64,000 bases of DNA from NCBI GenBank assembly GCA_030390025.1, contig CM059432.1, forward strand, positions 17,486,001-17,550,000, given 5' to 3'. Both the position numbers and the translations under genes were made by a program. Below the pieces are notes generated by a model, which was not told the origin of the DNA, did no database searches, and saw nothing but the letters and a program-made list of their open reading frames with translations. This DNA is from Squalus acanthias (lineage: Eukaryota). Below are positions 14,598 to 61,174 of this stretch, piece after piece. Numbering within the stretch: position 1 is the stretch's first letter; the number at the start of each line of letters is the position of its first letter.

Positions 14598-15895
14598 CAG
14601 GAACATGGGAACAGGAGGAGGCCATTTAGCCCCTCAAGCCTGCTCCGCCATTCAATGAGATTATGGCTGATCTGTGACCTAACTCCATATACCCGCCTTT
14701 GCCCCATATCCATTAATACCTGCAGTTAACAGAAATCTATCAATCTCAGATTTAAAATTAACAATTGATCTAGCATCAACTACCATTTGCGGAAGAGAGT
14801 TCCAAACTTCTACCACCGTTTGCGAGTAGAAGTGTTTCCTATCTTCACTCCTGAAAGGTCTGGCTCTAATTTTTAGGCTATGTCCCCTAGTCCTAGAATC
14901 CCCAACCAGCGGAAATAGTTTCTCTCTCTATTTACCCTATCAGTTCCCCTTAATATCTTGAAAACTTCGATCAAACCACCCTTTAATCTTCTAAATTCCA
15001 GGGAATACAACCCGGGTTTGTGTAATCACTCCTTGTAATTTAACCCTTGGAGTCCAGGTATCATTCTAGTAAATCTACGCTGCACTCCCTCCAAAGCCAA
15101 TATATCCTTCCTAAGGTGTGGTGCAGAGAACTGAACACAGTACTCCAGGTGTGGTCTAAACAGGGCTTTGTACAGGTGTAGCAGGACTTCTAACCCCTTG
15201 TATTCTAGTCCTCTAGATATGAAGGATTCCATTAGCCTTGTGGATTACTTTTTGTACCTGTCCATGACATTTTAATGATCTATACTCATGGACCCCTAAG
15301 TCTCTTTGGACCTCCATTGTTTCCAGCTGTTCACCATTTAGAAAGTACTCTGATCTATCCTTTTTTGGCCCAAAATGGATGACCTCGCACTTGCCTATAT
15401 TGAAATTCATTTGCCACATTTTTGCCCATTCACGTAATCTATTAATATCTCTTTGTAATTTTTTACTTCCATCTACACTGCTTATAATGCCGCCTATCTT
15501 TGTGTCATCGGCAAACTTAGATGCGTGGCTCTCTATCCCCTCATCTAAGTCATTAATAAATACAGTGAATAGTTGAGGCCCCAACACAGATCCCTGTGGG
15601 ACACCACTAGCCACATCCTGTCAATTTGAGTACTTGCCCATTATCCCTACTCTCTGTCTCCTGCCGCTCAGCCAATCTCCTAACCAGGTCAATAATTTGC
15701 CCTCAATTCCATGAGCTTCAACTTTAGCTAACAGTCTCTTATGAGGGACTTTATCAAATGCCTTCTGGAAGTCCATATAAATAACATCTATAGACATTTC
15801 CCTGTCCACTACTTCAGTCACCTCTTCAAAAGAGTCAATCAGGTTCGTCAAGCATGACCTACCCGTTACAAATCCATGCTGGCTCTCTCTGATCA
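14598..15895 (-). mobile_element. 5'-truncated CR1 (RT domain to tail), disrupted
   Basis: [38 protein letters not shown]. Confidence 0.9.
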
Positions 15896-16735
15896 GTTTA
15901 CCACCTTTTCCTATATTTTGGCAAGTATCCTATATTGCAGATTATATATTGAGTTACATTAACATTTACAATGTAGGGATGGAGATGCTTGAACGGCTTG
16001 GAATTACACATTGGTCAGGAAGTTGGAACAGGTGACAGAACTAACAGCATCCTGTAGAGTTAGTAACTCCACAGGGCAAGCCACAGCAAACGAGAAAGGG
16101 AGTCAGTGATGCATAATCTTCCTTTAGGCCCTGCTGGCTAAATGATAGCATCAGTGAGGGCTGGGGTTAGTTATTTGTACAATGTAGATACACATTCCAT
16201 GAGAAATCTGCGTCACTTTGAGTTGTCCAGTGACCTCTGCTGAATGGTACATGATTGTGGTCATTGGATAAGGATATGGTGGGGCCTTGCTGTGCTACCC
16301 TCATGGTAAATAACCATCTGACACTTGCCATCTAGACACATATGGAACAAATGGCCATTGGGCGATGTACTGATGGGCAGTCAGTACCTGGAAAACATGA
16401 ATCAGCAGCTTCAGGAGACAAAGGAAGAAAATGAAGAGGAAAAAGTCACTGTTTCAGACATGGGAGTAATGAAGTTGAATGTCTTGTGCTCTGCTAATAT
16501 CCCCATGCGTGAAGAGCACTAAGAACCAGGCATGGTTACTTTAACTATGAATAGGCTGAAACATTATAGACTCCAGACTTATATTGTCACTTAATTTGAA
16601 ATTCTCAAAAGGATGAAACCATTAAGTAATTTTTAATTTGGCTGGGACTTGAATCAACTGTCTTATAACAATATGATGGAGGTTACGATAAACAGCCTCT
16701 CGATAGGTCATGATAACAAAAAGGCGAACATGCCT

Positions 16736-24444: not shown

Positions 24445-25045
24445 CATAAGGACATAAGAACATAAGAAATAGGAGCAGGAGTAGGCCATTCGGCCCTTCG
24501 AGCCTGCTCCGCCATTCAATAAGATCATGGCTGATCTTCTACCTCATCTCCACTTTCCTGAACTATCCCCATATCCCTTAATTCCCTTAATATTCAAAAA
24601 TCTATCGATCTCTGTCTTGAATATACTCAACGACTGAGCCTCCACAGCCCTCTGGGGTAGAGAATTCCAAAGATTCACCACCCTCTGAGTGAAGAAATTT
24701 CTCCTTATCTCAGTCTTAAATGGCCGATCCCTTATTCTGAGACTGTGACCCCTGGTTCTAGACTCCCCAGCCAGGGGAAACATCCTCCCTGCATCTACCC
24801 TGTCAAGCCCTGTAAGAATTTTGTATGTTTCAATGAGATCACCTCTCATTCTTCTAAACTTTAAAGAATATAGGCCTAGTCTACTCAATCTCTCCTCATA
24901 GGACAATCCCTCCATCCCAGGAACCAGTTTGGTGAACCTTCGTTGCACTCCCTCTATGGCAAGTCTATCCTTCCTTAGGTAAGGAGACCAAAACTGTACA
25001 CAATACTCCAGGTGTGGTCTCACCAGGGCCCTATATAATTGCAGT
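24445..25045 (-). mobile_element. Young 5'-truncated CR1
   Basis: Open ORF2 C-terminus RPHLEYCVQFWSP..GYGDSSGKWR plus (ttcttatg)n tail. Confidence 0.9.
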
Positions 25046-25556
25046 TATATAACGTATTATATAAATCGCTATAAATATAAGAGCAGTGAATTTGGCCACG
25101 TGAATTCCTTTGTAACGTAATTTACAGTTACTGCATTTGTTTCCTTCTCATTTCTTCCCCTTTCCTGTTGCCACGTCATCCCTAGATACATCTGCTTTAT
25201 TTCAGCTGAAAATCACTTTTTTCCAGCCTTCGAGAATAGTGAGATTATCCCTAAGATAACTTTGACCACGAGCAGGAAATGATCTGTCAGGTGATACAAC
25301 TTGGGCAAAAGGGAAATGGAGCTCATGTGTAACAAATGAATTGCAAAACAACATTAAAAATAAAAGTAAACATGCTTTCATCGGCTCATTTTAGCCCAGT
25401 TCTGCAGAGTGCAGTCGAACAGCTGCATGGCCTGTTCATCATACTCATGTCACATGCAAGTGAAGTGATAATATTTTTGAGGCACAGTGACACATTTTGA
25501 TGTGGCTTGTGCTATTATTTGAAAACATATGTAAAAGCAATACCAATAAAGATTGT

Positions 25557-38009: not shown

Positions 38010-40278
38010 GTATTCAAAGGGGAGGTGCGGCCGCGACCCGGACCTCCATTTTCTTTTTTTGGCCGATCTCCAGGTCGGCCCTCCGCGGTGGGCCGTGGCG
38101 TGGTCCTGGCCGCCATCACGCAGCCCGGCACCGCGGCACCACGCCGCCCAGGTGGCCTAGTGTGGGCCATCGGAGGCCCTGCAGAGTGTGAAGGGGAGGG
38201 GCGTTGAAACGCGGCAACGCTCCTTGGAGCCTCCGTGGTGCGCTGTTGATTGTGCCCCGACATCGCCTCGGTTACCGTCTCACCAGGAAGCGGAGCATCC
38301 CGACATTGCTCAGTAGTCGGGAAAATGCTCGAACCTATTGTTAAGGACGTGGTAACAGGGCACTTAGAAAATAACAATAGGATTGGGCAGAGTCAACACG
38401 GATTTATGAAAGGGAAATCGTGTTTGACGAATCTGTTAGAGTTTTTTGAGGGTGTAACGAGCAGAATAGATAAGGGGGAACCAGTGGATGTGGTGTATTT
38501 GGATTTTCAGAAGGCATTTGATAAGGTGCCACACAAGAGGTTATTAAACAAAATTAGGGCTCATGGGACTGAGGGTAATATACTAGCATGGATTGAGGAA
38601 TGGTTAACGGACAGAAAACAGAGAATAGGAATAAACGGGTCATTTTCTGGTTGGCAGGCTGTAACTAGTGGGGTACCGCAAGGATCAGTGCTTGGGCCTC
38701 AGCTATTCACAATCTACATCAATGATTTGGATGAGGGGACCAAATGTAATATATCCAAGTTTGCTGATGATACAAAGCTGGGTGGGAATGTAAGTTGTGA
38801 GGAGGATGCAAAGAGGCTTCAAGGGTATATAGACAGGCTAAGTGAATGGGCAAGAACATGGCAAATGGAATATAATGTGGAGAAATGTGAAGTTATCCAC
38901 TTTGGTAGGAAAAATAGAAAAGCAGAGTATTTTTTAAATGATGAGAGATTGGAAAATGTTGGTGTTCAGAGGGACCTGGGTGTCCTTGTACACGAATGAA
39001 GTAACGGAGAGGATTGATGAAGGGAATGCAATGGATGTTGCCTACATGGATTTTCGGAAGGTGTTTGACAAAGTACCACAAAGTGGCCAGCGCAGACACG
39101 ATGGGCCGAAACAGCCTCCTTCTGTGCTGTAACTTTTTATTTATTTATGAGAAGGCTGGTTAACATAATTGAGGTTCAAGGAATAGGTGGGTCAGTGGCA
39201 GCTTGGATAAGGAATTGGCTTAAGGACTGAAAACAGCAAGTTGTGGTAAATGGCTGTTTTTCAGACTGGAGGATGGTAGACAGCGGTGTTTCCCAAGGGT
39301 CAGTGCTGGGGCCATTGCTTTTTTTGAAATATATAAATGACCTGGATATTGGAATACAGAGTAGAATTTCTAAATTTGCCGATGACACCAAACTTGGGGG
39401 TGTGGCAAACAGTGATGATGATATCAATCGACTGCAACAGGACACAGAAAGGCTAGCAGAATGGACAGACAAGTGGCAGATGGAATTTAATACAGAGAAG
39501 TATGAGGTGATGCATCTTGGAAGTAGGAACAGGGAGAGGCAATATACACTTAATGGCACAGGGTTAAAGAGTGTGCAGGGACAGAGGGACCTGGGAGTTA
39601 ATGTGCATAGGTCCCTGAAGGTGGCAGGACATATTGAGAGAGTGGTTAACAAAGCATATGGGACCTTGGGCTTCATAAATAGAGGTATTGAGTACAAAAG
39701 TAGAGAAGTTATGCTGAACCTTTAAAAAGTGCTGGTTAGGCCATAACTGGAGTATTGCGTCCAGTTCTGGTCACCACACTTTAGGAAGGATGTGAAGGCC
39801 CTTGAGAGGGTGTAGAGGAGATTTACCAGAATGGTTCTGGGGATGGGAGATCTTAGCTACAAGGACTGGTTGGAGAAGCTGGATTTGTTTTCATTAGAGC
39901 AAAGGAGGTTGAGGGGTGATTTGATAGAGGTGTACAAGGGTATGGATAGGCCAGATGGGGAAAGGCTGTTCCCACTAGTTGATGGTACAAAGACTAGGGG
40001 ACACAGATTTAAGGTTTTGGGCAAGAGATACAGGGGGCATGTGAGGAAAAACTTTTTTACGCAGCGAGGGTGATGACCTGGAATTCGCTGCCAACGGAAG
40101 TGGTGGAAGCGGAGACACTCAATGTTTTCAAGGGGAGACTGGATAGGCACTTGAGGGAAATAAACTTACAGGGCAATGGGGATAGAGCGGGGGAATGGGA
40201 CTGACTGGATTGCTCTATAGAGAGCCGGCACGGACTAGATGGGCTGAATGGCCTCCTTCTGTGCCGTTATGACTCTAT

Positions 40279-44316: not shown

Positions 44317-47300
44317 CCTTGGCAGCAAAATGGATTCACAGGTCTCTCCAGGCCGAGATTCAAGGCTGCAATGAGCAGGGTGTGGCTGGGGAGCAAGAGG
44401 CCCCCCCCCCCCTTTAAGAACTGGCCGGCGCCAGTGTGTCTGTGTTCCCTCGCTAACTGGCAGCACCTGCGCTGCGCTTGCGCGCTGAGTTAGCGCCTCA
44501 CTGCTCGGCCTTTGCGCCTTAAGACAGGTGTGCAGCGCCTGATTTAGCGCTCCACTCACCTCTCGGGGCGTTAAAAGTGAAGTTTCCAGTCAGTGGCGAT
44601 AATTAGCGCCAGGCGCTAATTTTTGCGCCCGGACGATATTTGCGCCCCAAACGGGGCGGGACTTAATTTTTCCCCCTATTACTCTATGAATCTCTTAAAG
44701 TTAACTTGCAGGTACAGCAAGCAACTAGGAAAGCAAATGGTATGTTAACCTTTATTACAAGAGGATTTGAGTATAAGAGTAAAAACGTCTTACTGCAATT
44801 ATATAGGGCCCTGGTGAGACCGCACCTGGAGTATTGTGTTCAGTTTTGGTCTCCTTACCTAAGGAAGGATATACTTGCCATAGAGGGAGTGCAACAAAGG
44901 TTCACCAGACTGGTTCCTGGGATAGGGGGATTGTCCTATGAGGACAGATTGAGTAGACTGGGCCTATATTCTCTAGAGTTTAGAAGAATGAGAGGTGATC
45001 TCATTGAAACATACTAAATTCTTACAGGACTTGACAGGGTAGATGCAGGGAGGATGTTTCCCCCGGCTGGGGAGTCTAGAACCAGGGGTCACAATCTCAG
45101 AATAAGGGGTCGACCATTTGGGACTGAGATGAGGAGAAATTTCTTCACTCAGAGGGTGGTGAATCTTTGGAATTCTCTACCCCAGAGGGCTGTGGAGGCT
45201 CAGTCGTTGAGTATATTCAAGACACAGATCGATTGTGCTGGGCGGTAAGCCGAATTTCGCGGCCGTGGCGGTACTTCCGCGCCGGGCGCTAAATGTCTGG
45301 CCTTAACTCGGTTACTGCCCCCAAACGGGGGCGTAGCCGAATTTCGCACCCTTAGTGTTCTATTTGACCCCGTATCCTCTCCATCACAAAGAGGGCGTAA
45401 TCCCACCTTTGTAACCTCACTCGCTTCTGCGCCTACGTCAGCCCATCCTCAGCCATGTATTTGTCACCTCCGGAGTCGACTATTCCAATGCTCTGCTGGT
45501 CGGCCTACCACCTTCCATCCTCCATAAACCTCAGCTCATCCAAAGCTCTTCTGCCCGTATCCTAACTCGCATATTTTAACCCACACCAAGTCGTGCTCAC
45601 CCATCTTGCTCACCCCTATCCTTGCTGATCTACATTTGCTCCCGGTCCCCCAGTGCCTCCAATTTAAAATTCTCATGTTTAAACTCCTTCATGGCCTCGC
45701 ATCTCTCACTCTCTGTAACCTTCTCTAGCCTTACAACCACCTGCACCCCCCCGCCACTCCCCACACCCACCCCCAGGATCTCTGGACCTCTTACTGTGGC
45801 CTCTTGTGCAACCCCTGCTGCCTTTGCCCTACCATTAGTAACTGCACTTTCAGCTGCCTAGGCCTCACGCTCTGGAATTTCTTCTTCAAACTTCTCCATC
45901 TCTCCACATCCCTCTCCTCCTTTAAGACGCTGCTTTAAACCCGCCTTTTTGAACAAGCTTTTGGTTACCCCTCCTAATATTTCATTTCTTTGATTGTGCC
46001 ACTGTGAAGTGCCTTAGGATGTTTTTCTACATTAACGGCGCTATATCGGTGCAAGTTGTAGTTGTAAAATTAACTGTGTGCTAATGAATTCAACATCATA
46101 TACTGCTGGCTATAAAGACACAAAATGGAGTCCAACCGAAATATTAAGGTGATCACAATTCTCCCAGCCTGAGTTATTTATTCTTGTCAAACAGCTTGCC
46201 AAATATTAAATACATTACTTGGAACAGTCAAGTTACTATCAACACCCAAAGGAAGGTTGTGCACAATTACTCATCATTGGATCCTCTTGAGGGCCTGAAA
46301 GCTGGGAGACTTCAGTTTAGGGCCTGAAAAACAAAATCTCCCAGCTTTGTTGAACATCACAAGATTGTTGGCAAAGAATTGATGACATAAAAAGACTTGA
46401 AGTGCATTGCTCAGAAGGTCGAAAAGACTTTGTTGAAATGAAATGCATTGTAGATAAGTCTAACTTAGCCAAAAAGAAAAGATTGGAAAGATCTTCAAGA
46501 TTATCCCGGGCAAAACGTCTACCCCAGAGTCCCAGATGTCTGGTAAATTTACTTTACAATCTTTCCTTCCATGTAATCTCTCAGTTCAGTAAAATGAGTT
46601 GAAGAAGTATTACTGGAATTAAAGCAGTATAGTGTTCAAGGTTTTTAGTGTGCTTGAAAATAATTTTTGGACAATGATTCACACTGGCACTTCACCTGTC
46701 TTTGTAGGTCTCTTCCAGAGTGGCCTCTACAGCTATAGGTCTCCAGTTTCTGATCAATGTGTGCATTTAACAAACACATGTTTTTATTCCTGGCTCTACA
46801 AAAGACTAATTGAAGGAGAAATTGGATCTCGTTTTGCCCAGTTTTTGTGTGAAAATGACAAATTTAGCAATGTCACGTCCCGTGTCTGAACTGGGTCGGA
46901 AATACATCTGACACCTTAATGGATCGGGTGCTATTTAGGCATCGCTGGCGTCCGCCTGAAATAAACGCTGGCCTAATTAAAATATGGAACATGACCGTTG
47001 TGTGCAATTGGTGTCCGGGAGCGGCAGATTCGTCAGTTCCTAATGACAGCAGATCATGGCGGGATACTTAAGCGGATCCTCACCTCCGTTAAGGTAAGTC
47101 TCTAGTTAGTCTTTATAGGCTGCTGGTGTGCTTTTTGAGCACTTTGTCAATTTGTCTGGTATTTCACTGTTGACTAGGTTTGGAGAGGGAGATTTGTAGT
47201 CTTTGTCAGCATTGGTTTCATCCCAATTGTGGAAGATGCTGTGCTGCTTGGGTTGCCTTTGAAGCTGCCAAATGAGGATGAAGAGCAGCAGCAACAAAGA

Positions 47301-48279
47301 GGGCAGCACAGACCTGTAGAGGTTGTTGGAAGAGGGTGAAGGAGGGAGGAGGTCTTACAACATGAGGGTCTTTGGTGGTGGAGGTCACTGTTGCCCTTAA
47401 CGTTTTATGTCTCTGGGTCATTCCAGACTCCAGCAAAGGGCATGACTAAAACAACAACAACTTGCATTTATATAGCGCCTTTAACGTAGTAAAACCTCCC
47501 AAGGCGCTTCATAGGAGAGTTATCAAACAAAATCTGACACTAAGCCACATAAGGAGATATTAGGGCAGATGAACGAGGTAGGTTTTAAGGAGCGTCTTAA
47601 AGGAGGAAAGAGAGGTAGAGAGACGGAAAGGTTTACGGAGGGAATTTCAGAGCTTCAGGCCTCGGAAGCTGAAGGGATGGCAGCCAATGGTGGAGCTATT
47701 AAAATCGGGGATGTGGATGAGGCCAGAATTGGAAGAGCGCAGATATCTCGGAGGGTTGTGGGGCTGGAGGAGGTTACAGAGATGGGGAGGGGTGAGGCTA
47801 TGGAGGGATTTGAAAACAAGGATGAGAATTTTAAAATCGAGGCGTTGTTTAACTGGGAGCCAAAGTAGGTCAGCGAGCACAGGGGTGATGGATGATGGGG
47901 ACTTGGTGCGAGTTAGGATATGGGCAGCAGTGTTTTGGATGACCTTAAATTTATGGAGGGTGGAAGATGGGAGGCCGGCCAGGAGTGCGTTGGATTAGTC
48001 AAATCTAGAGGTAACCAAGGCGTGGATGAGAGTTTCAGCAGCAGATGAGCTGAGGCAGGGGCGGAGTCAGGCGATGTTATAAGAACATAAGAACATAAGA
48101 AATAGGAGCAGGAGTAGGACAATCGGCCCCTCGAGTCTGCTCCGCCATTCAATAAGATCATGGCTGATCTGATCCTAACCTCAAATCTAAAGAACACAAG
48201 AAGTAGGAGCAGGACCCGGCCACTCAGCCCCTGGGCCCGCTCCGCCACCCACAGGGCCCTGAACTGTCCGAACTCAGCC

Positions 48280-51244
48280 TCATGTCAAATTTCCTGCCCG
48301 CTCACCGTAACCTCTAATTCCCTTTACCTCTAGGAAACTATCTATTTCTGTTTTAAATTTATTTAATGATGTAGCTTCCACAGCTTCCTAGGGCAGCAAA
48401 TTCCACAGACCCACTACCCTCTGAGTGAAGAAGTTTCTCCTCATCTCAGTTTTGAAAGAGCAGCCCCTTATTCTAAGATTATGCCCCCTAGTTCTAGTTT
48501 CACCCATCCTTGGGAACATCCTTACTGCATCCACCCGATCAAGCCCCTTCACAATCTTATATGTTTCAATAAGATCGCCTCTCATTCTTCTGAACTCCAA
48601 TGAGTAGAGTCCCAATCTACTCAACCTCTCCTCATATGTCCACCCCCTCATCCCCGGGATTAACCGAGTGAACCTTCTTTGTACTGCCTCGAGAGCAAGT
48701 ATGTCTTTTCTTAAGTATGGACACCAAAACTGTACGCAGTATTCCAGGTGCGGTCTCACCAATACCTTATATAACTGCAGCAATACCTCCCTGTTTTTAT
48801 AATCTATCCCCCTAGCAATAAAAGCCAACATTCCGTTGGCCTTCTTGATCATCTGCTGCACCTGCATACTAACTTTTTGATTTTCTTGCACTAGGACCCC
48901 CAGATCCCTTTGTACTGCAGTACTTTCCAGTTTCTCGCCATTAAGATAATAACTTGCTCTCTGATTTTTCCTGCCAAAGTGCATAACCTCACATTTTTCA
49001 ATATTGTATTGCATCTGCCAAATCTCCGCCCACTCGCCCAGCCTGTCTATATTCCCTTGTAGGTTTTTTATGTCCTCCTCACTTTCTACTTTCCCTCCCA
49101 TCTTTGTATCATCTGCAAACTTTGATATGTTACACTCGGTCCCCTCCTCCAAATCGTTAATATAGATTGTAAAGAGTTGGGGACCCAGCACCGACCCCTG
49201 CGGAAAACCACTGGCTACTGGTTGCCAGTCCGAGAATGAACCATTTATCCCAACTCTCTGCTTCCTGTTAGATAACCAATCCTCCACCCATGCCAGAATA
49301 TTACCCTCAATCCAGTGATTTTTTTATCTTGAGCAATAATCTTTTATGTGGCACCTTGTCGAATGCCTTCTGGAAGTCTAAATACACTACGTCCACTGGT
49401 TCCCCTTTATCCACCCTGTACGTTATGTCCTCAAAGAACTCAAGCAAATTTGTCAGACATGACTTCCCCTTCATAAAGCCATGCTGACTTTGTCCTATTA
49501 AATTATGTTTATCTAAATGTTCCGTTACTGTCTCCTTAATAATAGACTCCAAAATTTTACCCACCACAGATGTTAGGCTAACTGGTCTATAATTTCCAGC
49601 CTTCTGCCTACTACCCTTTTTAAATAAGGGTGTTACATTAGCAGTTTTCCAATCTGCTGGGACCTTTGCTGAGTCCAGGGAATTTTGGAAAATTATTACC
49701 AAAGCATCCACAATCCCTACTGCCACTTCCCTCAAGACCCTAGGATGTAAGCCATCAGGTCCAGGGGATTTATTCGCCTTGAGTCCCATTATTTTACTGA
49801 GTACCAATTCCTTAGTGATTTTAATCGTATTTAGCTCCTCCCCCACTAGAGCCCCCTGTTTGTCCAGTGTTGGGATATTGTTAGTGTCCTCTACCGTAAA
49901 GACTGAAACAAAATATTTGTTCAGCATTTTTGCCATCTCCATGTTTCCCACCATTAATTTCCCGGTCTCATCCTCTAAGGGACCTACGTTTGCCTTAGCC
50001 ACCCTTTTTCTTTTTATATAACTATAGAAACTCTTGCTATCTGTTTTTATATTTTTTGCTAATTTATTTTCATAATCTATCTTCCCTTTCTTAATCAATC
50101 CTTCAGTTACTTTTTGCTGTCTTTTGAAGACTTCCCAATCTTCTATCCTCCCACTAAGTTTGGCTACCTTATATGTCCTTGTTTTTAGTCGGATACTATC
50201 CTTAATTTCTTTACTTAGCCACGGATGGCTGTCATTTCTTTTACACCGTTTTTTCCTCAGTGGAATATATTTCTTTTGAAAGTTGTAAAATAACTCCTTA
50301 AATGAACACCACTGCTCATGTACCTTCTTACCCTTTAATCTATTTTCCCAGTCCACTTTAATCAATTCCGCTCTCATACCATCATAGTCTCCTTTATTCA
50401 AGCTCAGTACGCTTGTTTGAGAACCAACCTTCTCACCCTCTAATTGGATATGAAATTCAACCATGTTATGGTCACTCATTCCAAGGGGATCCTTAACTAG
50501 GACATTATTATTTAATCCTGACTCATTACACAGGACCAGGTCCAAGGTTGCTTGCCCCCTTGTAGGATCAGTTACATATTGCTCAAGAAATCCATCCCTA
50601 AGACACTCAATAAACTCTTCCTCAAGGCTGCCCTGCCCAATTTGATTTGTCCAGTTAATATCATAGTTAAAATCCACCATAATTATAGCTGTTCCCTTAT
50701 TACATGCCCCAACTATTTCCTGATTAATACTTCTTCCAGCAGAGTTGCAACTATTAGGAGGCCTATATACTACTCCCACTAGTGTTTTTTTCCCCTTATT
50801 ATTCCTTATCTCCACCCAAACTGTTTCACTATCCTGATCCTTTGACCCAATATCATTTCTCTGTATTACAGTGATTCCTTCCTTTATTAACATAGCCACC
50901 CCACCTCCCCTTCCTTGCTGCCTGTCCTTCCTAATTGTTAAATACCCTGGCATATTTAGTTCCCAGTCGTTGTCACCCTGCAGCCATGTTTCTGTAATGG
51001 CCACAAGATCATACCCATACGTAGTTATTTGTGCGGTTAACTCGTCCATTTTGTTACGAATGCTACGTGCATTCAGATAAAGAACTTTCAAATATGTTTT
51101 GTGACACTTAGTTCCTGCTTTTTCCTTTTTTAACACTTTACCTTTTACTCCATACCTTCTGTCCCTTCCTGACACGCTTTCCTCTGTCTCCCTGCTCACG
51201 TGCCCAACCCCCTGCCGCTTCAGTTTAAACCCTCCCCAACAGCA
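48280..51244 (-). pseudogene. CR1 ORF2 (APE endonuclease + RT) with a +1 A frameshift at 49319-25 and a TAG at 48388-90
   Basis: [51 protein letters not shown]. Confidence 0.9.
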
Positions 51245-52170
51245 CTAGCAAACACTCCCCCTAGGACAGCGGTCCCGGCCCTGCCCAGGTGCAGACCGTC
51301 CGGTTTGTACTGGTCCCACCTCCCCCAGAACCGGTTCCAATGTCCCAGGAATTTGAATCTCTCCCCCTTGCACCATTCCTCTAGCCACGTATTCATTTGA
51401 AATATCCTCCTATTTCTACTCTGACTAGCACGTGGCACTGGTAGCAATCCTGAGATTACTACCTTTAAGGTCCTATTTTTTAATTTACCTCCTAACTCCC
51501 TATATTCTGCTTTTAGGACCTCATCCCCTTTTTTACCTATATCGTTGGTGCCTATGTGCACCACGACAGCTGGCTGTTCGCCCTCCCCCTCCAAAATGTT
51601 CTGTAGCCGCTCTGAGACATCCTTGACCCTTGCACCAGGGAGGCAACACACCATCCTGGAGTCTCGGTTGCGGCCGCAGAAACCCCTATCTATTCCCCTT
51701 ACAATTGAGTCCCCTACCACTATAGCTCTTCCACTCTTTTTCCTCCCAGCCTGTGCAGCAGAGCCACCCATGGTGCCAGGAATTTGGCTGCTGCTGCCTT
51801 CCCCTGATAAGTCATCCCCCCCAACAGTATTCAAAGTGGTATATCTGTTTGAGAGGGGGATGTCCACAGGGGACCCCTGCACTACCTGCCTGCACCTCTT
51901 ACTCTGCCTGGTGGTCACCCATTTACTTCCTGCCTGTACACCCTTTGCCTGCGGTGTGACCAACTCACTAAACGTGCTATTCACGAGGTTCTCAGCATCG
52001 CGAATGCTCCAATACACATCCAATCGCAGCTCCAGCGCCGTAATGCGGTCTGCCAGTAGCTGTAGCTGGATACACTTCCCGCACACATGGTTGTCAAGGA
52101 CACCGTAAGGGTCCCTGATTTCCCATATAGCACAGGAAGAGCATACCACGGGGCCGAGCTCTCCTGCCAT
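51220..52170 (-). CDS. CR1 ORF1: zinc finger, coiled coil and SGNH esterase-like domain (316 aa)
   Basis: CSSC..CGKC, heptad L repeat, IVVGDS, CLPGA, HIGTND, DGLHL. Confidence 0.92.
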   Translation of the reverse strand: MAGELGPVVCSSCAIWEIRDPYGVLDNHVCGKCIQLQLLADRITALELRLDVYWSIRDAENLVNSTFSELVTPQAKGVQAGSKWVTTRQSKRCRQVVQGSPVDIPLSNRYTTLNTVGGDDLSGEGSSSQIPGTMGGSAAQAGRKKSGRAIVVGDSIVRGIDRGFCGRNRDSRMVCCLPGARVKDVSERLQNILEGEGEQPAVVVHIGTNDIGKKGDEVLKAEYRELGGKLKNRTLKVVISGLLPVPRASQSRNRRIFQMNTWLEEWCKGERFKFLGHWNRFWGRWDQYKPDGLHLGRAGTAVLGGVFASAVGEGLN

Positions 52171-53076
52171 GACTTACCCTTTAATTAATTCAAATTAAAT
52201 TAAAACAAATCAATCCCACCAATTGCACTACAGTTAAATGATATACTTAAGGGCCCTGGTTTACCAACAGTCCCCGCTACACCACAGAGAGCTTAGAAAC
52301 TATAAACCAGAGTTTAAGTTTAAAAAGAGAGAAATACTCACTAACCAATGGAGGTGGAAATAGGTGATTTTAGCCATGGCATGGCTATGTGGTCGGAAGC
52401 TCGTCTCAGGGTTAAATAGGACACCAAGGTTGCGAACAGTTTAGTTCAGCCTCAGACAGTTGCCAGGGAGAGGGATGGAGTCGGTGGCTAGGGAATGGAG
52501 TTTGTGGTGGGAACCGAAGACAATGGCTTCGGTCTTCCCAATATTTAGTTGGAGGAAATTTCGTGCTCATCCAGTACTGGATGTCGGACAAGCAGTCTGA
52601 CAATTTAGAGACAGTGGAGGGGTCGAATGAGGATGTGGTGAGGTAGAGCTGGGTGTCGTCTGCGTATATGCAATATGTTAATTTGCTGTGGACACTCCCA
52701 GCTCGCATGTAACAGATACACTCTTTGTTATGTGGCACAAATTCCTCACCTTCTCCATGAAGGCTGCCAAGCAAGAGGAAAGAGCTGTGGGATTTGCCAG
52801 AATTGCTGGATTTCCACAGGTACAGGGAATCATAGGCTGCACTTACGTAGCCCACTTTGCTCTCTATCATCAACTAGCAATGGTCTACGACAGGAAGGGC
52901 TTTCATTCCTTGAATGTGCAGCTCATCTGTGACCACAGGCGGGCTTTTATTCAGGTTTGTGCTCGGTTTCCTGGCAGTAGTCATGATGCTTACATCCTGC
53001 GCTAGTTCTCATCATCCCCTACTTACACCTGTACCATCGGGCTAGAGGCTGGCTACTTAGGGCCAAGGGGTATCCC

Positions 53077-54754: not shown

Positions 54755-56980
54755 CTTCTAAGCAAGTATATCCTTCTTTAGAAAAGGAGACCAAAACTGT
54801 GCACAGTACTCCAGGTGTGGTCTCACCCAGGCCCTGTACAATTGTAGCAAGACTTCCTTACTCTTATACTCCAACCCCATTGCAATAAAGGCTAACATGC
54901 CATTTGCCTTCCTAATCGCTTGCTGTATGTGCACGCTAACTCTCTGTGTTTCTTGTACTAGGACACCTAAATCTCTCTGAACCTCAACATTTAATAGTTT
55001 CTCACCATTTAAAAAATATTCTGTTTTCCTATTTTTCCTACCAAAGTGAATAACCTCACATTTCCCCACATTATACTCCATCTGTCATCTTATTGCCCAT
55101 TCATTTAACCTGTCTATATCCCTTTGCAGGATCTTTGTGTCCTCCTCACAGCTTACTTTCTCACCTAGCTTTGTACCATCAGCAAACTTGGATATATTAC
55201 ACTCGGTCCCTTCATCTAGGTCATTAATATAGATTGTAAATAGCCGAGGCCCAAGCACTGATCCTTGCGGCACCCCACTAGTTACAGCCTGCCAACCGGA
55301 AAATTACCCGTTTATCACTACTCTCTGATTTCTGTCCGTTAACCAATCCTCTATCCATGCTAATACATAACCCCAACCCCATGAGCACTTATCTTGCGTA
55401 ACAACCTTTTATGTGACACCTTATCGAATGCCTTTTAGAAATCCAAATATACTACATCCATTGATTCTCCTTTATCTACCCTGTTAGTTACATCCTCAAA
55501 AACTCTAATAAATTTGTTAAACATGATTTCCCTTTCATATAACCATATTGATTCTCCCTAATCATATTATGATTTTCTAAGTACACTGTTACCACTTCCT
55601 TAATAATGGATTCCAGCATTTTCCCAATGACTGATGTCAGGCTAACTGGCCTATAGTTCCCTGTTTTCCCTGTCCCTCCTTTCTTAAATAGTAGGGTTAT
55701 ATTTGCTACCTTCCAATCCGTTGGGACTGTTCCAGATTTTTGGAATTTTGGAAGATCACAATGAATGCATCCACTATCTCTGCAGCCAGCTCTTTTAGAA
55801 CCTAGGATGTAAACCATCAGGCCCAGGGGATTTGTCAGCTTTTAGCCCCATTAATTTCTCAAGTACTTTTTCTCTACTGATATTAATTACTTTAAGTTCC
55901 TCACTCTCATTAGCCTTTTGGTTCCCCACTATTTTTGGTATGCTTTTTGTGTTTTCTACTGTGAAGACAGACACAAAATATTTGTTTGAATTCTCTGCCA
56001 TTTCCTTGTTCCCCATTATAATTTCTCCTGTCTCAGCCTCTAAGGGACCAATGCTTACTTTTGCTACTCTCTTCTTTTTGCATACTTGCTCTTACAATCT
56101 GTTTTTATATTTCTTGCTAATTTACTCTCATATTCTATTTTCTCCTTTTTTTTATCAATGTTTTGGTCATCCTTTGCTGGTTTCTAAAGCTTTCCCAATC
56201 CTCAGGCTTACTACTGTTCTTCACAACATTATAAACCTCTTCTTTTAATCTAATACTATCCTTAACTTCTTTAGTTAACCACAAATGTATCACTTTTCCC
56301 CTGGATTTTTTATTTCTCAATGCAATGTATATTCATTGAAGTTTTGGAATATTTCTTTAAATGTTTGCCACTGCTTATTTACTGTCATACCTTTGCTAAT
56401 TTCCCACTCTATCTTAGCCAACTCGCCAACCATACCTATGTCATTGGATTTATTTAAGTTTAAGACTCTCGTTTCAGATGTAAGAATGTCACTCTCAAAC
56501 TCAATGTGAAATTCTATCATATTATGATCACTCTTCCCCAGAGTATCCTTTACTATGAGATTACTAATTAACCCTGTCTCATTACACAAAACAAAATCTA
56601 AAATAGCGTGTTCCCTGGTTGGGTCCATGACATATTGTACTAGGAAACTGTCTCGAATGCATTCCATGAACTCATCCTCCAGACTACCCTTGCCAATTTG
56701 ATTTGCCCAATCTATATGAAGATTAAAGTCCCCCACGATTATTGCATTACCTTTGTTACAAGCTCCTACTATTTCTTGATTAATACTCTGTCCAACGGTA
56801 TAGCTATTGTTAGGGGCCCTGTAAACTACTCCCACCACCATTTTCTGTCCCTTGTTATTTCTTATCTCCACCATTTTGATTTTACTGCCTGATCTTCTGA
56901 GTCAAGATCCTTTCTCACTACTGTCCTTATGTCATCCTTTATTATCAAGGCTATCCCCCACTACTTTTCCAGTCTGCCTG
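54755..56980 (-). mobile_element. Degraded CR1 ORF2 (endonuclease to RT), 3' end missing
   Basis: [32 protein letters not shown]; multiple frameshifts. Confidence 0.9.
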
Positions 56981-57394
56981 TACACATGCACACAGTTCAC
57001 CAACAAAGATACACAGATGTGCCACAAAATAGGCTCTGTTAGGATAATGCAAGTCACTCTTGGAGGCTCCAATTTTAACTCCTGGCTAGTTTTCGGTGGG
57101 TGAGAAGCGGTGTGAGTTAGAAACTCATCCACTGCTCCAGAATTGAGGCTCGGGGTATTTTAGTTCCCGGGCCTCATTCAAACCCTGCCGGCTGACTACC
57201 CACCTGTTCCGGACGGAAAATCCATCCTTGTTGTCTGGTGTTATAAAATCTGATCCGCAATATAAAACGGGATACATTCCACAGCATTGGGAGCCCCAGA
57301 CATGGTCATGTGCTCTGTTCCTGTATATGGAGCCAAGAGCAAAGGAATCAATCCCTTGTATAAGTAAAAAAAAAAGCACTGCTTATATGGAATG

Positions 57395-58884: not shown

Positions 58885-59725
58885 TAAAAAATTAATTCAG
58901 GGGATGTGGGTGTCGCTGGCAAGGCCAGCATTTACTGCCCATCCCTAACTGCCCTTGAGAAGGTGGTGGTGAGCCGTCTTTTTGAATCACTGCTGTCCGT
59001 GTGGTGAAGGTACTCCCACAGTGCTGTTAGGTGGAGTGTCCCAGGATTTTGAGCCAGCGACGATGAAAGAACGGCGATATATTTCCAGGTCAGGATGGTG
59101 TGTGACTTGGAGGTGATGGTGTTCCCATGCGCTTGCTGTACTTGTCCTTCTAGGTGGTAGAGGTCACGGGTTTGGGAGGTGCTGTCGAAGAAGCCTTGGC
59201 AAGTTGCTGCAGTGCATCTTATAGATGGTACACACTGCAGCCACATTGTACCGGTGGTGGAGGGAGTGAATGTTTAAGGTGGTGGATGGGGTGCCGATCA
59301 AGTGGGCTGCTTTTTCCTGGATGGTGTCAAGCTTCTTGAGTGTTGTTGGAGCTGCACCCATCCAAGTAATTGGAGAGTATTCCATCAGACTTGTGCCTTG
59401 TAGCCACAGTACTTATTAGGAGGTGAGTCACTCACTGCAGAATAGCCAGCCTCTGACCTGCTCTTGTAGCCACAGTATTTATGTGGCTGGTCCAGTTAAG
59501 TTTCTGGTCAATGGTGACCCTCCAGGATGTTGATGGTGGGGGATTTGGCGGTGGTAATGCCGTTGATTGTCAAGGGGAAGTGGTTAGACTCTCTCTTGTT
59601 GGAGATAGTCATTGCCTGGCACTTGTGTGGCGCGACTGATACTTGCAACTTATCAGCCCAAGCCTGGATGTTGTCGAGGTCTTGCTGGATGTGGGCATGG
59701 ACAGCTTCATTATCTGAGGAACTGC
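58885..59725 (-). mobile_element. Poly(A)-type LINE ORF2 C-terminal fragment inside a CR1 ORF1 relic (58790-58885, 59760-59885)
   Basis: QQDLDNIQAWAD, MEYSPITWMGAA..HSLHHR.. Confidence 0.75.
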
Positions 59726-61174
59726 CTCCTGCATCACTTCTCCAGCCACGCATTTACCTGCACTATCTTCCGGTTTCTATACTTGCTAGCGTGTGGCACT
59801 GGGAGTAATCCTGAGATTAATACCTTTGAGGTCCTGTTTTTAATCTTTTTCCTAACTCCTGAAACTCTGCCTGAAGGACCTCAACTGTGACCAGAACTGT
59901 ACACAGTACACTAGCTGTGGCCTAACTAGTGTTTTATACAGTTCAAGCATAACCTCCCTGCTCTTATATTCTATGCCTCGGCTAATAAAGGGAAGTATCC
60001 TGTATGCCTTCTTAACCACCTTATCTACCTGTCCTGTTACCTTCAGGGATCTGTGGACATGCACTCTAAGGTCTCTATGTTCCTCTATACTTCTCAGTAT
60101 CCTACCATTTATTGTGTATTCCCTTGCCTTGTTAGCCCTCCCCAAATACATTACCTCACACTTCTCCGGATTGAATTCCATTTGCCACTTTTCTGCCCAC
60201 CTGACCAGTCCATTGATATCTTCCTGCAGTCTACAGCTTTCGTCCTCACTATAAACCACACGGCCAATTTTTGTATCATCTGCAAACTTCTTAATCATGC
60301 CCTCTACATTGAAGTTTAAATCATTGATATATACCACAAAAAACAAGGGATCTAGTACTGAGCCCTGCGGAATCCCACTGGAAACAGCCTTCCAGTCACA
60401 AAAACAACCGTCAACCATTATCCTTTGCTTCTTGCCACTGAGCCAATCTTGGATCCAACTTGCCACTTTCCCTTGGATCCCATGCGCTTTTACTTTTCAG
60501 ACCAGTCTGCCATGTGGGACCTTGTCAAAAGCCTTGCTAAAATCCATGTAGGCTACATCAAACGCGATACCCTCATCGACCCTCCTTGTTACCTCCTCAA
60601 AAAATTCAATCAAGTTAGTCAGACATGAGCTTCCCTTAACAAATCCATGCTGACTGTCCTTGATTAATCCATGCCTTTCTAAATGACAATTTATACTGTC
60701 CCTCAGAGTTTTTTCCAATAATTTGCCCACCACCGAGGTTAGGCCGACCAGACTGTAATTACTTGGCCTATCCCTTTCTCCCCTTTTAAACAACAATGTT
60801 GCCAGGACTGGAGAGTTTTAGCTATGAGGAAAGATTGGATAGGCTGGGATAGTTTTCTTTGGAGCAGAGGAGGCTGAGGGGAGACTTAATTGAGGTATAT
60901 AAAATTATGAGGGGCCTAGATAGAGTGGATAGGAAGGACCTATTTCCCTTAGGAGAGAGGTCAATAACCAGGGGCATAGATTTAAAGTAATGCTGTGATT
61001 ATTTGCACGAACACCTTTGCGGCCTTCTGCGCATGCGCGCGGTATACCGGAGCCACGCATGCACAGTACAGAACAGTTATGCATTGCAGCCTGTACCGTG
61101 GGCCACGTTTTCCTTGGCTCCGTGTGTAGAAGGTCAGGGGATCCGTTGGTGGCCGGGGGAGTTGGGGGGCGGGG

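Follow-up and report, generated by a model that had tools for sequence, protein, structure and literature searches.

A decayed, near-full-length CR1 LINE copy of a cartilaginous fish is present in the window (the whole 64-kb stretch of DNA that was analysed). Comparison of its ORF1/ORF2 junction with those of related elements suggests that in CR1 the ORF2 protein is probably produced fused to ORF1, through programmed -1 frameshifting at the heptamer U_UUA_AAC. Most ribosomes would terminate at the ORF1 stop and release ORF1p, and a minority would shift by one base in the 5′ direction while tRNA-Leu and tRNA-Asn sit on UUA AAC. The predicted trans-frame product here is ...GEG-L-[N/K]-L-K-R-Q-G..., and the fusion would be a chain of ~1,300 aa (esterase-endonuclease-RT). 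The stimulator might be the adjacent stop codon together with a G tract, either protein-bound or as a two-tier quadruplex, and not a classical pseudoknot. This mechanism would belong to active parents, as the present copy is decayed.

A frameshift had been proposed in a first-pass annotation of the same DNA. The comparisons support that reading, but the alternative GTG start, the generality of a second heptamer (G_GGU_UUA) and a pseudoknot or three-tier quadruplex downstream did not hold up.

The element and its junction

The features of the copy are shown in Table 1. ORF2 displays an APE endonuclease (EN) and an RT, ORF1 an SGNH esterase, and the 3′ end is a short tandem repeat without poly(A), (TTATGTTC)n at about positions 48081–48105. 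These are the characters of the CR1 clade, and the copy is assigned to it by them; the tree that was built is an EN tree of the collected sequences. By eye, the junction is closely similar to that of the published ScyCan_CR1-1a, and the 5′ UTR resembles that of dogfish CR1 consensuses.

ORF1 consists of an N-terminal Cys-rich region and a long helix, followed by a disordered linker and the SGNH esterase (PF13472, E-value = 1.7e-12; PDB 4C1B, the ZfL2-1 esterase, E-value = 1.7e-41 with profile A1). ORF2 has 76%–81% identity to the relative P0121. Its 5′ part is cut short where an A-run near position 49,320 breaks the frame, and a premature stop (48390–88) lies inside the 3′ part. The 3′ end recurs in further CR1 copies within the window; a second ORF1/ORF2 junction was not found in these 64 kb. 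Viral contigs, contigs of prokaryotic genomes and plasmids yielded no junction that could be used, and two contaminant contigs began downstream of it. The insertion target of the copy was an older repeat, with the dinucleotide AT common to both junctions. This flanking repeat is presumably L2-like, a label given from a translated RT-like fragment.

Table 1. Features of the CR1 copy, with positions in the window.
Feature	Position	Strand	Basis or remark
Near-full-length CR1 LINE copy, ~4.27 kb	48079..52349	-	Sequence and domains
Truncated 5′ UTR; carries a TTTAAACT and splice-donor-like motifs (GTGAGT, GGTAAGT)	52171..52349	-	Sequence
ORF1, 316 aa, end ...GEGLN-stop	51220..52170	-	PF13472, PDB 4C1B, AF2 model
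Last -1-frame stop upstream of the shift site; bounds the overlap	51245..51247	-	Sequence
Overlapping heptamer G_GGU_UUA	51226..51232	-	Shark and ray subfamilies, not general
Slippery heptamer U_UUA_AAC and candidate -1 shift site, adjoining the ORF1 stop	51223..51229	-	In phase, conserved
ORF1 stop, TGA here	51220..51222	-	TAA in most related depth; TAG/TAA/TGA across lineages
G tract GGGGG-NN-GGG at +11 to +20 from the heptamer end; candidate stimulator on the 3′ side	51203..51212	-	Offset conservation
In-frame GTG; copy-private, family CTG; no conserved start	51197..51199	-	Read depth of other copies
First in-frame ATG, within the endonuclease domain	51047..51049	-	ATA in most depth of 3/4 runs
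ORF2 5′ part, -1 frame: linker, APE endonuclease, RT start	49307..51244	-	PF03372, PF14529, PF00078; tblastn with P0121
ORF2 3′ part (RT and C-terminus)	48290..49323	-	Lower end approximate; domains, sequence
CR1 3′ end with (TTATGTTC)n repeats	48079..48115	-	Sequence

The junction is as the first-pass annotation had described it. On the minus strand ORF1 ends in GAG GGT TTA AAC TGA. The -1 frame of ORF2 opens directly after a TAG, the overlap is 25 nt with the ORF1 stop included, and both overlapping heptamers are in phase. The first ATG of ORF2 does lie past the EN motif YLNARS (counted from the heptamer, the motif is at codon 50 and the Met at codon 60). Since ORF1 of this copy holds two further in-phase heptamers (51685 and 51481), a single heptamer means little alone. 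What supports the junction heptamer as real is its conservation and not its mere presence.

Conservation of the heptamer

Conservation at synonymous sites had been put forward as a check of the proposal, and TTTAAAC is indeed kept across jawed-vertebrate CR1. With a search profile (A1) that slightly favours LN ends, Leu-Asn-stop was the terminus of 82 out of 120 ORF1 homologues; among the 91 that extend to the end of the esterase, the count is 81. The distance from the DGLHL motif to the end is 21 aa in 77 of these 81, and LN remains at the stop in longer tails of 27 aa (5 proteins) and 34 aa (3 proteins). In the AF2 model the last helix stops at position 312 and residues 314–316 have a pLDDT below 50, i.e. 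the LN tail is predicted to be unstructured. The ZfL2-1 esterase chain (4C1B) stops short of the LN columns and is without the LN end that its CR1 homologues have. By these data, a structural role for LN is unlikely.

At the nucleotide level, exact TTTAAAC is found in six of the seven amniote-type loci that extend to the junction. The heptamer is degraded in L001, which was omitted from the amniote-type junction, linker and G4 comparisons, and the stop is lost in L040. Codons of ORF1 at identical residues match between the shark copy and individual loci in only 20/47, 17/42 and 15/43 cases (uniform expectation 14.7, 12.2 and 12.8). Given x-L-N and the elements' own codon use, the probability of nnT TTA AAC is 0.025 or less, a value that overstates independence as the sequences compared are related.

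Among published consensuses (PMC13343379, supplementary Table 2), 18 of the 22 TTTAAAC-plus-stop matches listed are ORF1/ORF2 junctions, in 12 species. Six synonymous spellings of Leu-Asn-TAG gave 14 matches, of which 0 are at a junction, in a partial control that covers the TAG stop and 6 of 11 spellings. A search anchored on the G motif yielded seven CR1 entries, each with the motif directly after (T)TTAAAC-stop. By these comparisons, the heptamer is conserved beyond coding need, and the U_UUA_AAC junction is a feature of the CR1 family as a whole, from sharks to birds. This applies to only one of the two heptamers that had been claimed: G_GGU_UUA is lineage-specific, and in amniote-type loci TTTAAAC is preceded by GC or TG.

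More distant ORF1 sequences end in QGN, SGN, SKN or GKN, which are compatible with other slippery heptamers. From the representatives of 50% clusters, 85 non-redundant C-termini were compared: an in-phase X_XXY_YYZ can be encoded right before the stop in 50, versus 41 of 765 tripeptides further in; the other 35 termini are incompatible with a heptamer. Termini ending in N (n = 53) comprise 40 LN, 8 GN and 2 KN, the GN and KN ends being known from protein, with their heptamer spelling inferred. Q precedes GN in 7/8 cases and LN in 0/40, and this matches what G_GGA_AAC, as against U_UUA_AAC, requires.

It is very unlikely that the motif is kept for some other reason, e.g. as a C-terminal degron or binding motif or as an RNA or DNA element, with the -1 overlap incidental. 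Conservation of a C-terminal motif does not require that it be structured, and TTTAAACT is also found in some CR1 5′ UTRs. However, a protein signal would leave TTA, AAC and the T in front of them free to vary, and it does not predict the pattern of Q with GN and non-Q with LN.

The frame and the start of ORF2

Between heptamer and EN motif, no stop interrupts the -1 frame in any of the five sequences (linkers of 37–88 codons), and the other two frames over those linkers have 2–9 stops. The opening of the -1 frame lies just 3–6 nt ahead of the heptamer in 5/6 amniote-type loci. An in-frame AUG precedes the EN motif in four of the five testable amniote-type loci, at codon 4 in L002 and L003, codon 22 in L005 and codon 18 in L040.

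The GTG at 51199, previously named as an alternative start, is in the ORF2 frame, but it is private to this copy and its relatives have CTG. Variants of other copies were taken from read depth summed over this locus in four sequencing runs, and here the G of the GTG is C in 99%–100% of the depth in 4/4 runs. In the same runs the ATG at 51049 is ATA in 58%, 85%, 4% and 95% of the depth, and the ORF1 stop is TAA in 96%–100%. None of the 40 variants listed falls at 51222–51232, but as 95 more lay beyond the listing, this is not counted as evidence. Judged from these data, no start codon is conserved ahead of the EN. In the close relatives P0121–P0124 and P0127, gene callers place the start at upstream Mets.

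A different way to reach ORF2 is termination-reinitiation, in which ribosomes stop at the end of ORF1 and restart at a nearby AUG (a UAAUG overlap, as in SART1) or largely independently of the codon, as proposed for LINE-1; the heptamer and the G tract would then retain or position the ribosome. SART1 and LINE-1 have the same bicistronic LINE RNA with ORF2 just past ORF1. In the passages available, downstream structure is stated to be needed for SART1 coupling and L1 reinitiation to be unconventional (PMC5972666; PMC3708506), and ORF2 translation from such RNAs is described as unclear (PMC3708506; PMC3894237). In L002 and L003 the in-frame AUG lies 2 nt past the stop. SART1 uses UAAUG, whereas only 3/18 CR1 consensus junctions display it (ScyCan_CR1-1a, SquAca_CR1-17a and SquAca_CR1-6c), and neither this copy nor any of the variants listed has it; L1 has a 63-nt spacer where CR1 has an overlap. 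Reinitiation does not explain the slippery spelling of the last codons, the swap to QGN, SGN, SKN or GKN in distant termini, or an AUG of variable position in a -1 frame that is open from the heptamer on. This copy and L020 have no AUG before the EN, and neither the GTG nor the first ATG is conserved. Reinitiation is thus regarded as unlikely.

A spliced subgenomic RNA would join a donor in the 5′ UTR to an acceptor at the junction, with TTTAAAC as a branch-like sequence, AG|G as acceptor and the G-runs as splicing elements, and ORF2 would start at an internal AUG. The donor-like motifs of the 5′ UTR (Table 1), TAG|G at many amniote junctions and the presence of CR1 ORF1 pieces in chimeric gene models are in line with this. 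Because the stop varies between TAG, TAA and TGA, however, no acceptor AG is conserved; nor is an AUG before the EN, and LN-stop is retained in the ORF1 frame. Splicing therefore seems scarcely credible as the source of ORF2.

A weak search for a natural single open reading frame of esterase, EN and RT found none. The candidates for ORF1-ORF2 fusion were rejected: P0125 is a gene model of a broken copy, and the others are unrelated chimeric models.

Downstream of the heptamer

The G-rich tract pointed out in the first-pass annotation is conserved at a fixed distance, but the folding check found no pseudoknot or three-tier G-quadruplex. In many lineages GGGGG follows the heptamer at a distance of 10 nt, and the offset is identical in 5/5 loci with sequence there. 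Of the 18 consensus junctions, six have the tract at exactly this offset, seven have it shifted or in variant form, four lack it, and in one it is cut off. The same offset is seen in ScyCan_CR1-14 and in loose-end consensuses of runs X6 and X9.

With respect to canonical -1 frameshifting, the junction has an in-phase heptamer in the overlap, an open -1 frame and conservation of the heptamer. The stimulatory stem-loop or pseudoknot at 5–9 nt downstream was not found (z = -1.5 at this locus), and the G tract begins at +11 instead. No 3′ stem is shared among the loci compared, and Rfam gave two matches, both at chance level. The G tract window is in the top 1% of G4Hunter scores of this element; a two-tier G4 pattern is found in 3/6 sequences and a three-tier pattern in 0/6. 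A long-range partner of the tract was also sought, and the best match was rejected since its position is in flanking host DNA and not in the element.

Relation to known systems

U_UUA_AAC is also the coronavirus site. The -1 frameshifts of retroviruses (gag-pol) and coronaviruses (ORF1a/1b) have, in the text available, the same in-phase X_XXY_YYZ, the polymerase being encoded in the -1 frame downstream of a protein made in larger amounts (PMC3542737). CR1 differs from them in that no conserved stem-loop or pseudoknot lies at 5–9 nt, the stop adjoins the heptamer, and a short G tract is 10 nt away. In arteriviruses a similar spacing of ~10 nt separates the shift site from a short C-rich motif. 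Stimulation by proteins in trans has a precedent there, nsp1beta with PCBP (PMC5009743, in part). The main arterivirus shift is -2, whereas the CR1 case is G-rich and -1. According to the portion available of the same 2016 review, natural use of a G-quadruplex in frameshifting was not known then (PMC5009743), and a natural G-tract stimulator, if true, would be new.

Among LINEs, vertebrate CR1 elements with an esterase ORF1 (CR1 clade; ZfL2-1 esterase, PDB 4C1B) share with this copy the SGNH esterase in ORF1, APE and RT in ORF2, and the short 3′ tandem repeat (PMC3905857, in part). Accounts of CR1, as far as their available text goes, describe two open reading frames without a mechanism for ORF2 translation. 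Dictyostelium TRE5-A and TRE3-A, also APE-type LINEs, are stated to need a -1 frameshift for ORF2 (PMC5911963), and the excerpts available mention no heptamer or G tract. They differ from CR1 in belonging to the L1 clade, in an unrelated ORF1 and in targeting tRNA genes. No claim of CR1 frameshifting was found in the searchable literature, a search that did not extend to the original CR1 papers. The 1997 papers on chicken and turtle CR1 may already note the overlap.

CR1-group elements are described, in the part available, as the dominant retrotransposons in most vertebrates (PMC13343379). If frameshifting is the route to ORF2, CR1 ORF2 gene models with an internal Met start are mis-annotated, and the RT would carry a lipid-binding esterase. 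The conserved 30-nt signal makes the question of ORF2 translation directly testable in a reporter.

In-frame relatives

A broader reading is possible and is offered tentatively: recoding may be how esterase-ORF1 LINEs across animals produce their RT, as a gag-pol-like fusion. In CR1 of jawed vertebrates a -1 shift would take place at U_UUA_AAC, with the adjacent stop and the G tract 10 nt downstream as its drivers in place of a pseudoknot; in sister lineages the shift site would be G_GGA_AAC or A_AAA_AAC, and a further clade would rely on UGA-C readthrough. If true, the retroviral split between frameshifting and readthrough would be repeated inside LINEs, with a new natural type of stimulator.

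The last of these refers to a distant esterase-ORF1 clade in which one stop separates ORF1 from an ORF2 in the same frame (17 loci). A consistent 3′ stem was not found in six non-redundant loci of this clade. The stop context is TGA|C in 15/17, with TGA|CTA in 8/17 and TGA|CCA in 5/17, and the UGA-C context would fit type II readthrough (UGA followed by CUA or CGG) as described in the available part of PMC3542737. In L009 and L030, ORF2 is likewise in frame behind the stop.

Structure of the CR1 copy

The closest named homologues of ORF1 in the CR1 copy of the window are from a sawshark (72%–75% identity, protein search), which suggests a cartilaginous fish as host. ORF2, which displays APE endonuclease (EN) and RT domains, is interrupted near 49,320, where the frame breaks, and by a stop codon at 48390–88; thus this copy is decayed. 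The first-pass annotation proposed a -1 frameshift at the ORF1/ORF2 junction, and re-reading of the sequence found all its junction coordinates to be correct. Because two additional in-phase heptamers are present inside ORF1, the single junction heptamer proves little, and its conservation was therefore tested.

Features of the window and related LINE loci
Feature	Position or loci	Strand	Basis
Near-full-length CR1 LINE inside older repeat	about 52349 to 48079	minus	sequence
5′ UTR of this copy	52171-52349	minus	
ORF1, 316 aa, SGNH esterase	52170-51220	minus	domain search; structure match 4C1B
Heptamer U_UUA_AAC	51223-51229	minus	
Decayed CR1 RT fragment, then directly ORF1 fragment	59722-60790	minus	
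Other-subfamily CR1 copies/fragments	54761-56981; 14605-15896; 24456-25095	minus	
Other-subfamily CR1 copies/fragments	38310-40067; 44676-45236	plus	
Distant esterase-ORF1 LINEs, ORF2 in frame behind single TGA, mostly then C	L009, L016, L019, L021, L023-L025, L030, L032, L035, L039, L044, L046, L047, L049, L050, L056, L059, L061		

The 5′ UTR contains splice-donor-like GTGAGT and GGTAAGT, the latter immediately upstream of the ORF1 start codon ATG, as well as a TTTAAACT. Some CR1 5′ UTRs also contain TTTAAACT, which counts against the frameshift reading. TTTAAAC plus stop is found as well in the 5′ UTRs of two dogfish consensuses. The RT-ORF1 fragment pair has a reversed gene order, i.e. it is a rearranged or nested copy. 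The five other-subfamily copies or fragments show about 65%–75% identity, and none reaches the ORF1/ORF2 junction.

Conservation of the heptamer

Eighty metagenome loci were examined, and seven that resemble amniote CR1 extend to the junction. TTTAAAC is exact in six of these, five of which keep the stop codon; L001, whose junction is degraded, was excluded from later counts. In the rest of ORF1, synonymous sites are near saturation between the window copy and three loci (identical codons 20/47, 17/42 and 15/43). The probability of nnT TTA AAC, conditional on x-L-N, does not exceed 0.025.

Supplementary Table 2 of PMC13343379 was covered up to letter 400 of each consensus (full consensuses could change the counts). 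It gave 23 matches to TTTAAAC plus stop; among the 22 listed, 18 are ORF1/ORF2 junctions, from 12 species that include elephant shark, coelacanth, bowfin, bullfrog, crocodilians and a lizard. Since this search selects on the motif itself, controls were run on the same partial supplement. Six synonymous Leu-Asn-TAG spellings yielded 14 matches, none at the junction, and a search anchored on gggggatggg yielded 9, of which the 7 in CR1 rows all lie directly 3′ of (T)TTAAAC-stop. The junction signal is real and conserved. Of the two overlapping heptamers pointed out in the first-pass annotation, G_GGU_UUA is retained only in shark and ray subfamilies.

The linker from heptamer to EN motif (37–88 codons) has no stop codons in the -1 frame in 5/5 sequences, and 2–9 in the other frames. 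The -1 frame opens only 3–6 nt upstream of the heptamer in 5/6 loci. GFKL running into the endonuclease in P0125 and P0038, gene models of broken copies, is the same DNA in the -1 frame.

Contigs from four public runs (organisms A, B, C and E; 4 of the 24 listed) were aligned to 50950–51500. No heptamer variant occurs among the 40 rows listed, 95 further rows lying beyond these, and the ORF1 stop is TAA in 96%–100% of summed depth.

C-terminal region of ORF1

Leu-Asn (LN) is the terminus of 82 among 120 listed ORF1 homologues (sharks, rays, chimaera, a teleost, frogs, turtles, lizards, birds), and of 81 among the 91 that extend through the end of the esterase; in 77 of these 81, the DGLHL motif lies 21 aa from the C-terminus. 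Amino acids without a codon ending in T (E, K, Q, M, W) precede LN in 3/82, against 38/82 and 22/82 at the next two positions upstream. They are just as rare at positions -6 and -7, because hydrophobic helix residues stand there. In the AF2 model the last helix stops at 312 and residues 314–316 have pLDDT below 50; the ZfL2-1 esterase chain (4C1B) stops short of the LN columns.

Searching 50%-cluster representatives with a profile gave 150 proteins; in 95 the motif lies no more than 60 aa from the end, and these comprise 85 distinct ends. Of the 85 terminal tripeptides, 50 can be encoded by an in-phase slippery heptamer placed immediately 5′ of the stop, versus 41/765 further in, in a comparison between related sequences and with a profile slightly biased towards LN; 35/85 are incompatible. 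Termini in N comprise 40 LN, 8 GN, 2 KN, 2 SN and 1 DN, with Q preceding GN in 7/8 and LN in 0/40. This pattern, seen in protein only, is that expected if G_GGA_AAC and A_AAA_AAC replace U_UUA_AAC. Termini QGN, SGN, SKN and GKN, which fit one or the other of these two, are found in proteins P0211, P0212, P0216, P0224, P0228, P0229, P0256, P0279, P0234, P0282 and P0100.

Translation of ORF2

On this sequence evidence the junction signal is most probably a -1 frameshift site. The main rival, reinitiation, appears unlikely overall. In-frame AUGs lie upstream of EN in 4/5 testable amniote-type loci, and UAAUG occurs in 3 of the 18 consensus junctions, so some subfamilies may use reinitiation. The alternative GTG start (51199) is private to the window copy, its first G being C in 99%–100% of summed depth in the four runs. 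Even the first ORF2 AUG (51049) is unstable, as it is ATA in 58%, 85%, 4% and 95% of depth in the four runs.

A weak search found no natural single-ORF esterase-EN-RT fusion. No CR1 frameshift claim was found in the searchable literature (early CR1 papers lie outside it), in the main text of PMC13343379, or in PMC3894237, PMC5009743, PMC3905857, PMC5972666, PMC2734521, PMC3708506, PMC5006619 and the PMC4316615 supplement, as far as their accessible parts extend. LINE frameshifting has precedent, since Dictyostelium TRE5-A and TRE3-A are stated to require a -1 frameshift (PMC5911963, excerpt); the proposed CR1 -1 frameshift would be a variation on a known mechanism.

Sequence downstream of the heptamer

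No pseudoknot 3′ of the heptamer is supported: folding is unremarkable (z -1.5) and no stem is common to the loci. The downstream structure expected of canonical -1 frameshifting (PMC3542737, excerpt) was not found at the junction. GGGGG begins at +11 in the window copy, in 5/5 loci with sequence, and in loose ends of sequencing runs X6 and X9. It is present at that offset in 6 of the 18 consensus junctions and in ScyCan_CR1-14; in 7 junctions it is shifted or variant, in 4 it is absent and in 1 it is cut. Columns have visibly been dropped from these consensuses. The residue before G varies (Q, K, P, R, L or S) while the tract bases stay G, which points to a constraint at the RNA level. By G4Hunter the tract ranks among the top 1% of windows in 5/6 sequences, and it fits no three-tier quadruplex in the six. 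It may be a 3′ stimulator of frameshifting.

The tract is missing from two of the three UAAUG junctions in the covered supplementary rows (SquAca_CR1-17a, SquAca_CR1-6c). This hints at a possible switch to reinitiation in some subfamilies; deletions in the consensuses are a possible alternative explanation.

Distant relatives with ORF2 in frame

Esterase and EN motifs are both present in 28/81 sequences, with EN in frame 0 in 19. In 17 of these the ORF1 stop alone separates the ORFs; it is TGA in every case, with C as the next base in 15 (CTA 8, CCA 5), and removing redundancy from the 17 leaves 6 sequences, all of one clade. Further in-frame loci show TGA CTA (L009, L030) and TAG G (L037). 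UGA-CUA is a type II readthrough context (PMC3542737, excerpt). Because Mets occur in most linkers of the clade and no 3′ stem is consistent across it, stop-codon readthrough is suggested only, as a candidate.

In loci L023, L024, L032, L055 and L057 the linker before the endonuclease resembles a mosaic built from those of two subfamilies, i.e. EN-like residues and then a second linker. Vertebrate CR1 sequence is also found in records labelled as bacterial genomes (L090, positions 1–741, and protein P0007), and is likely host contamination.
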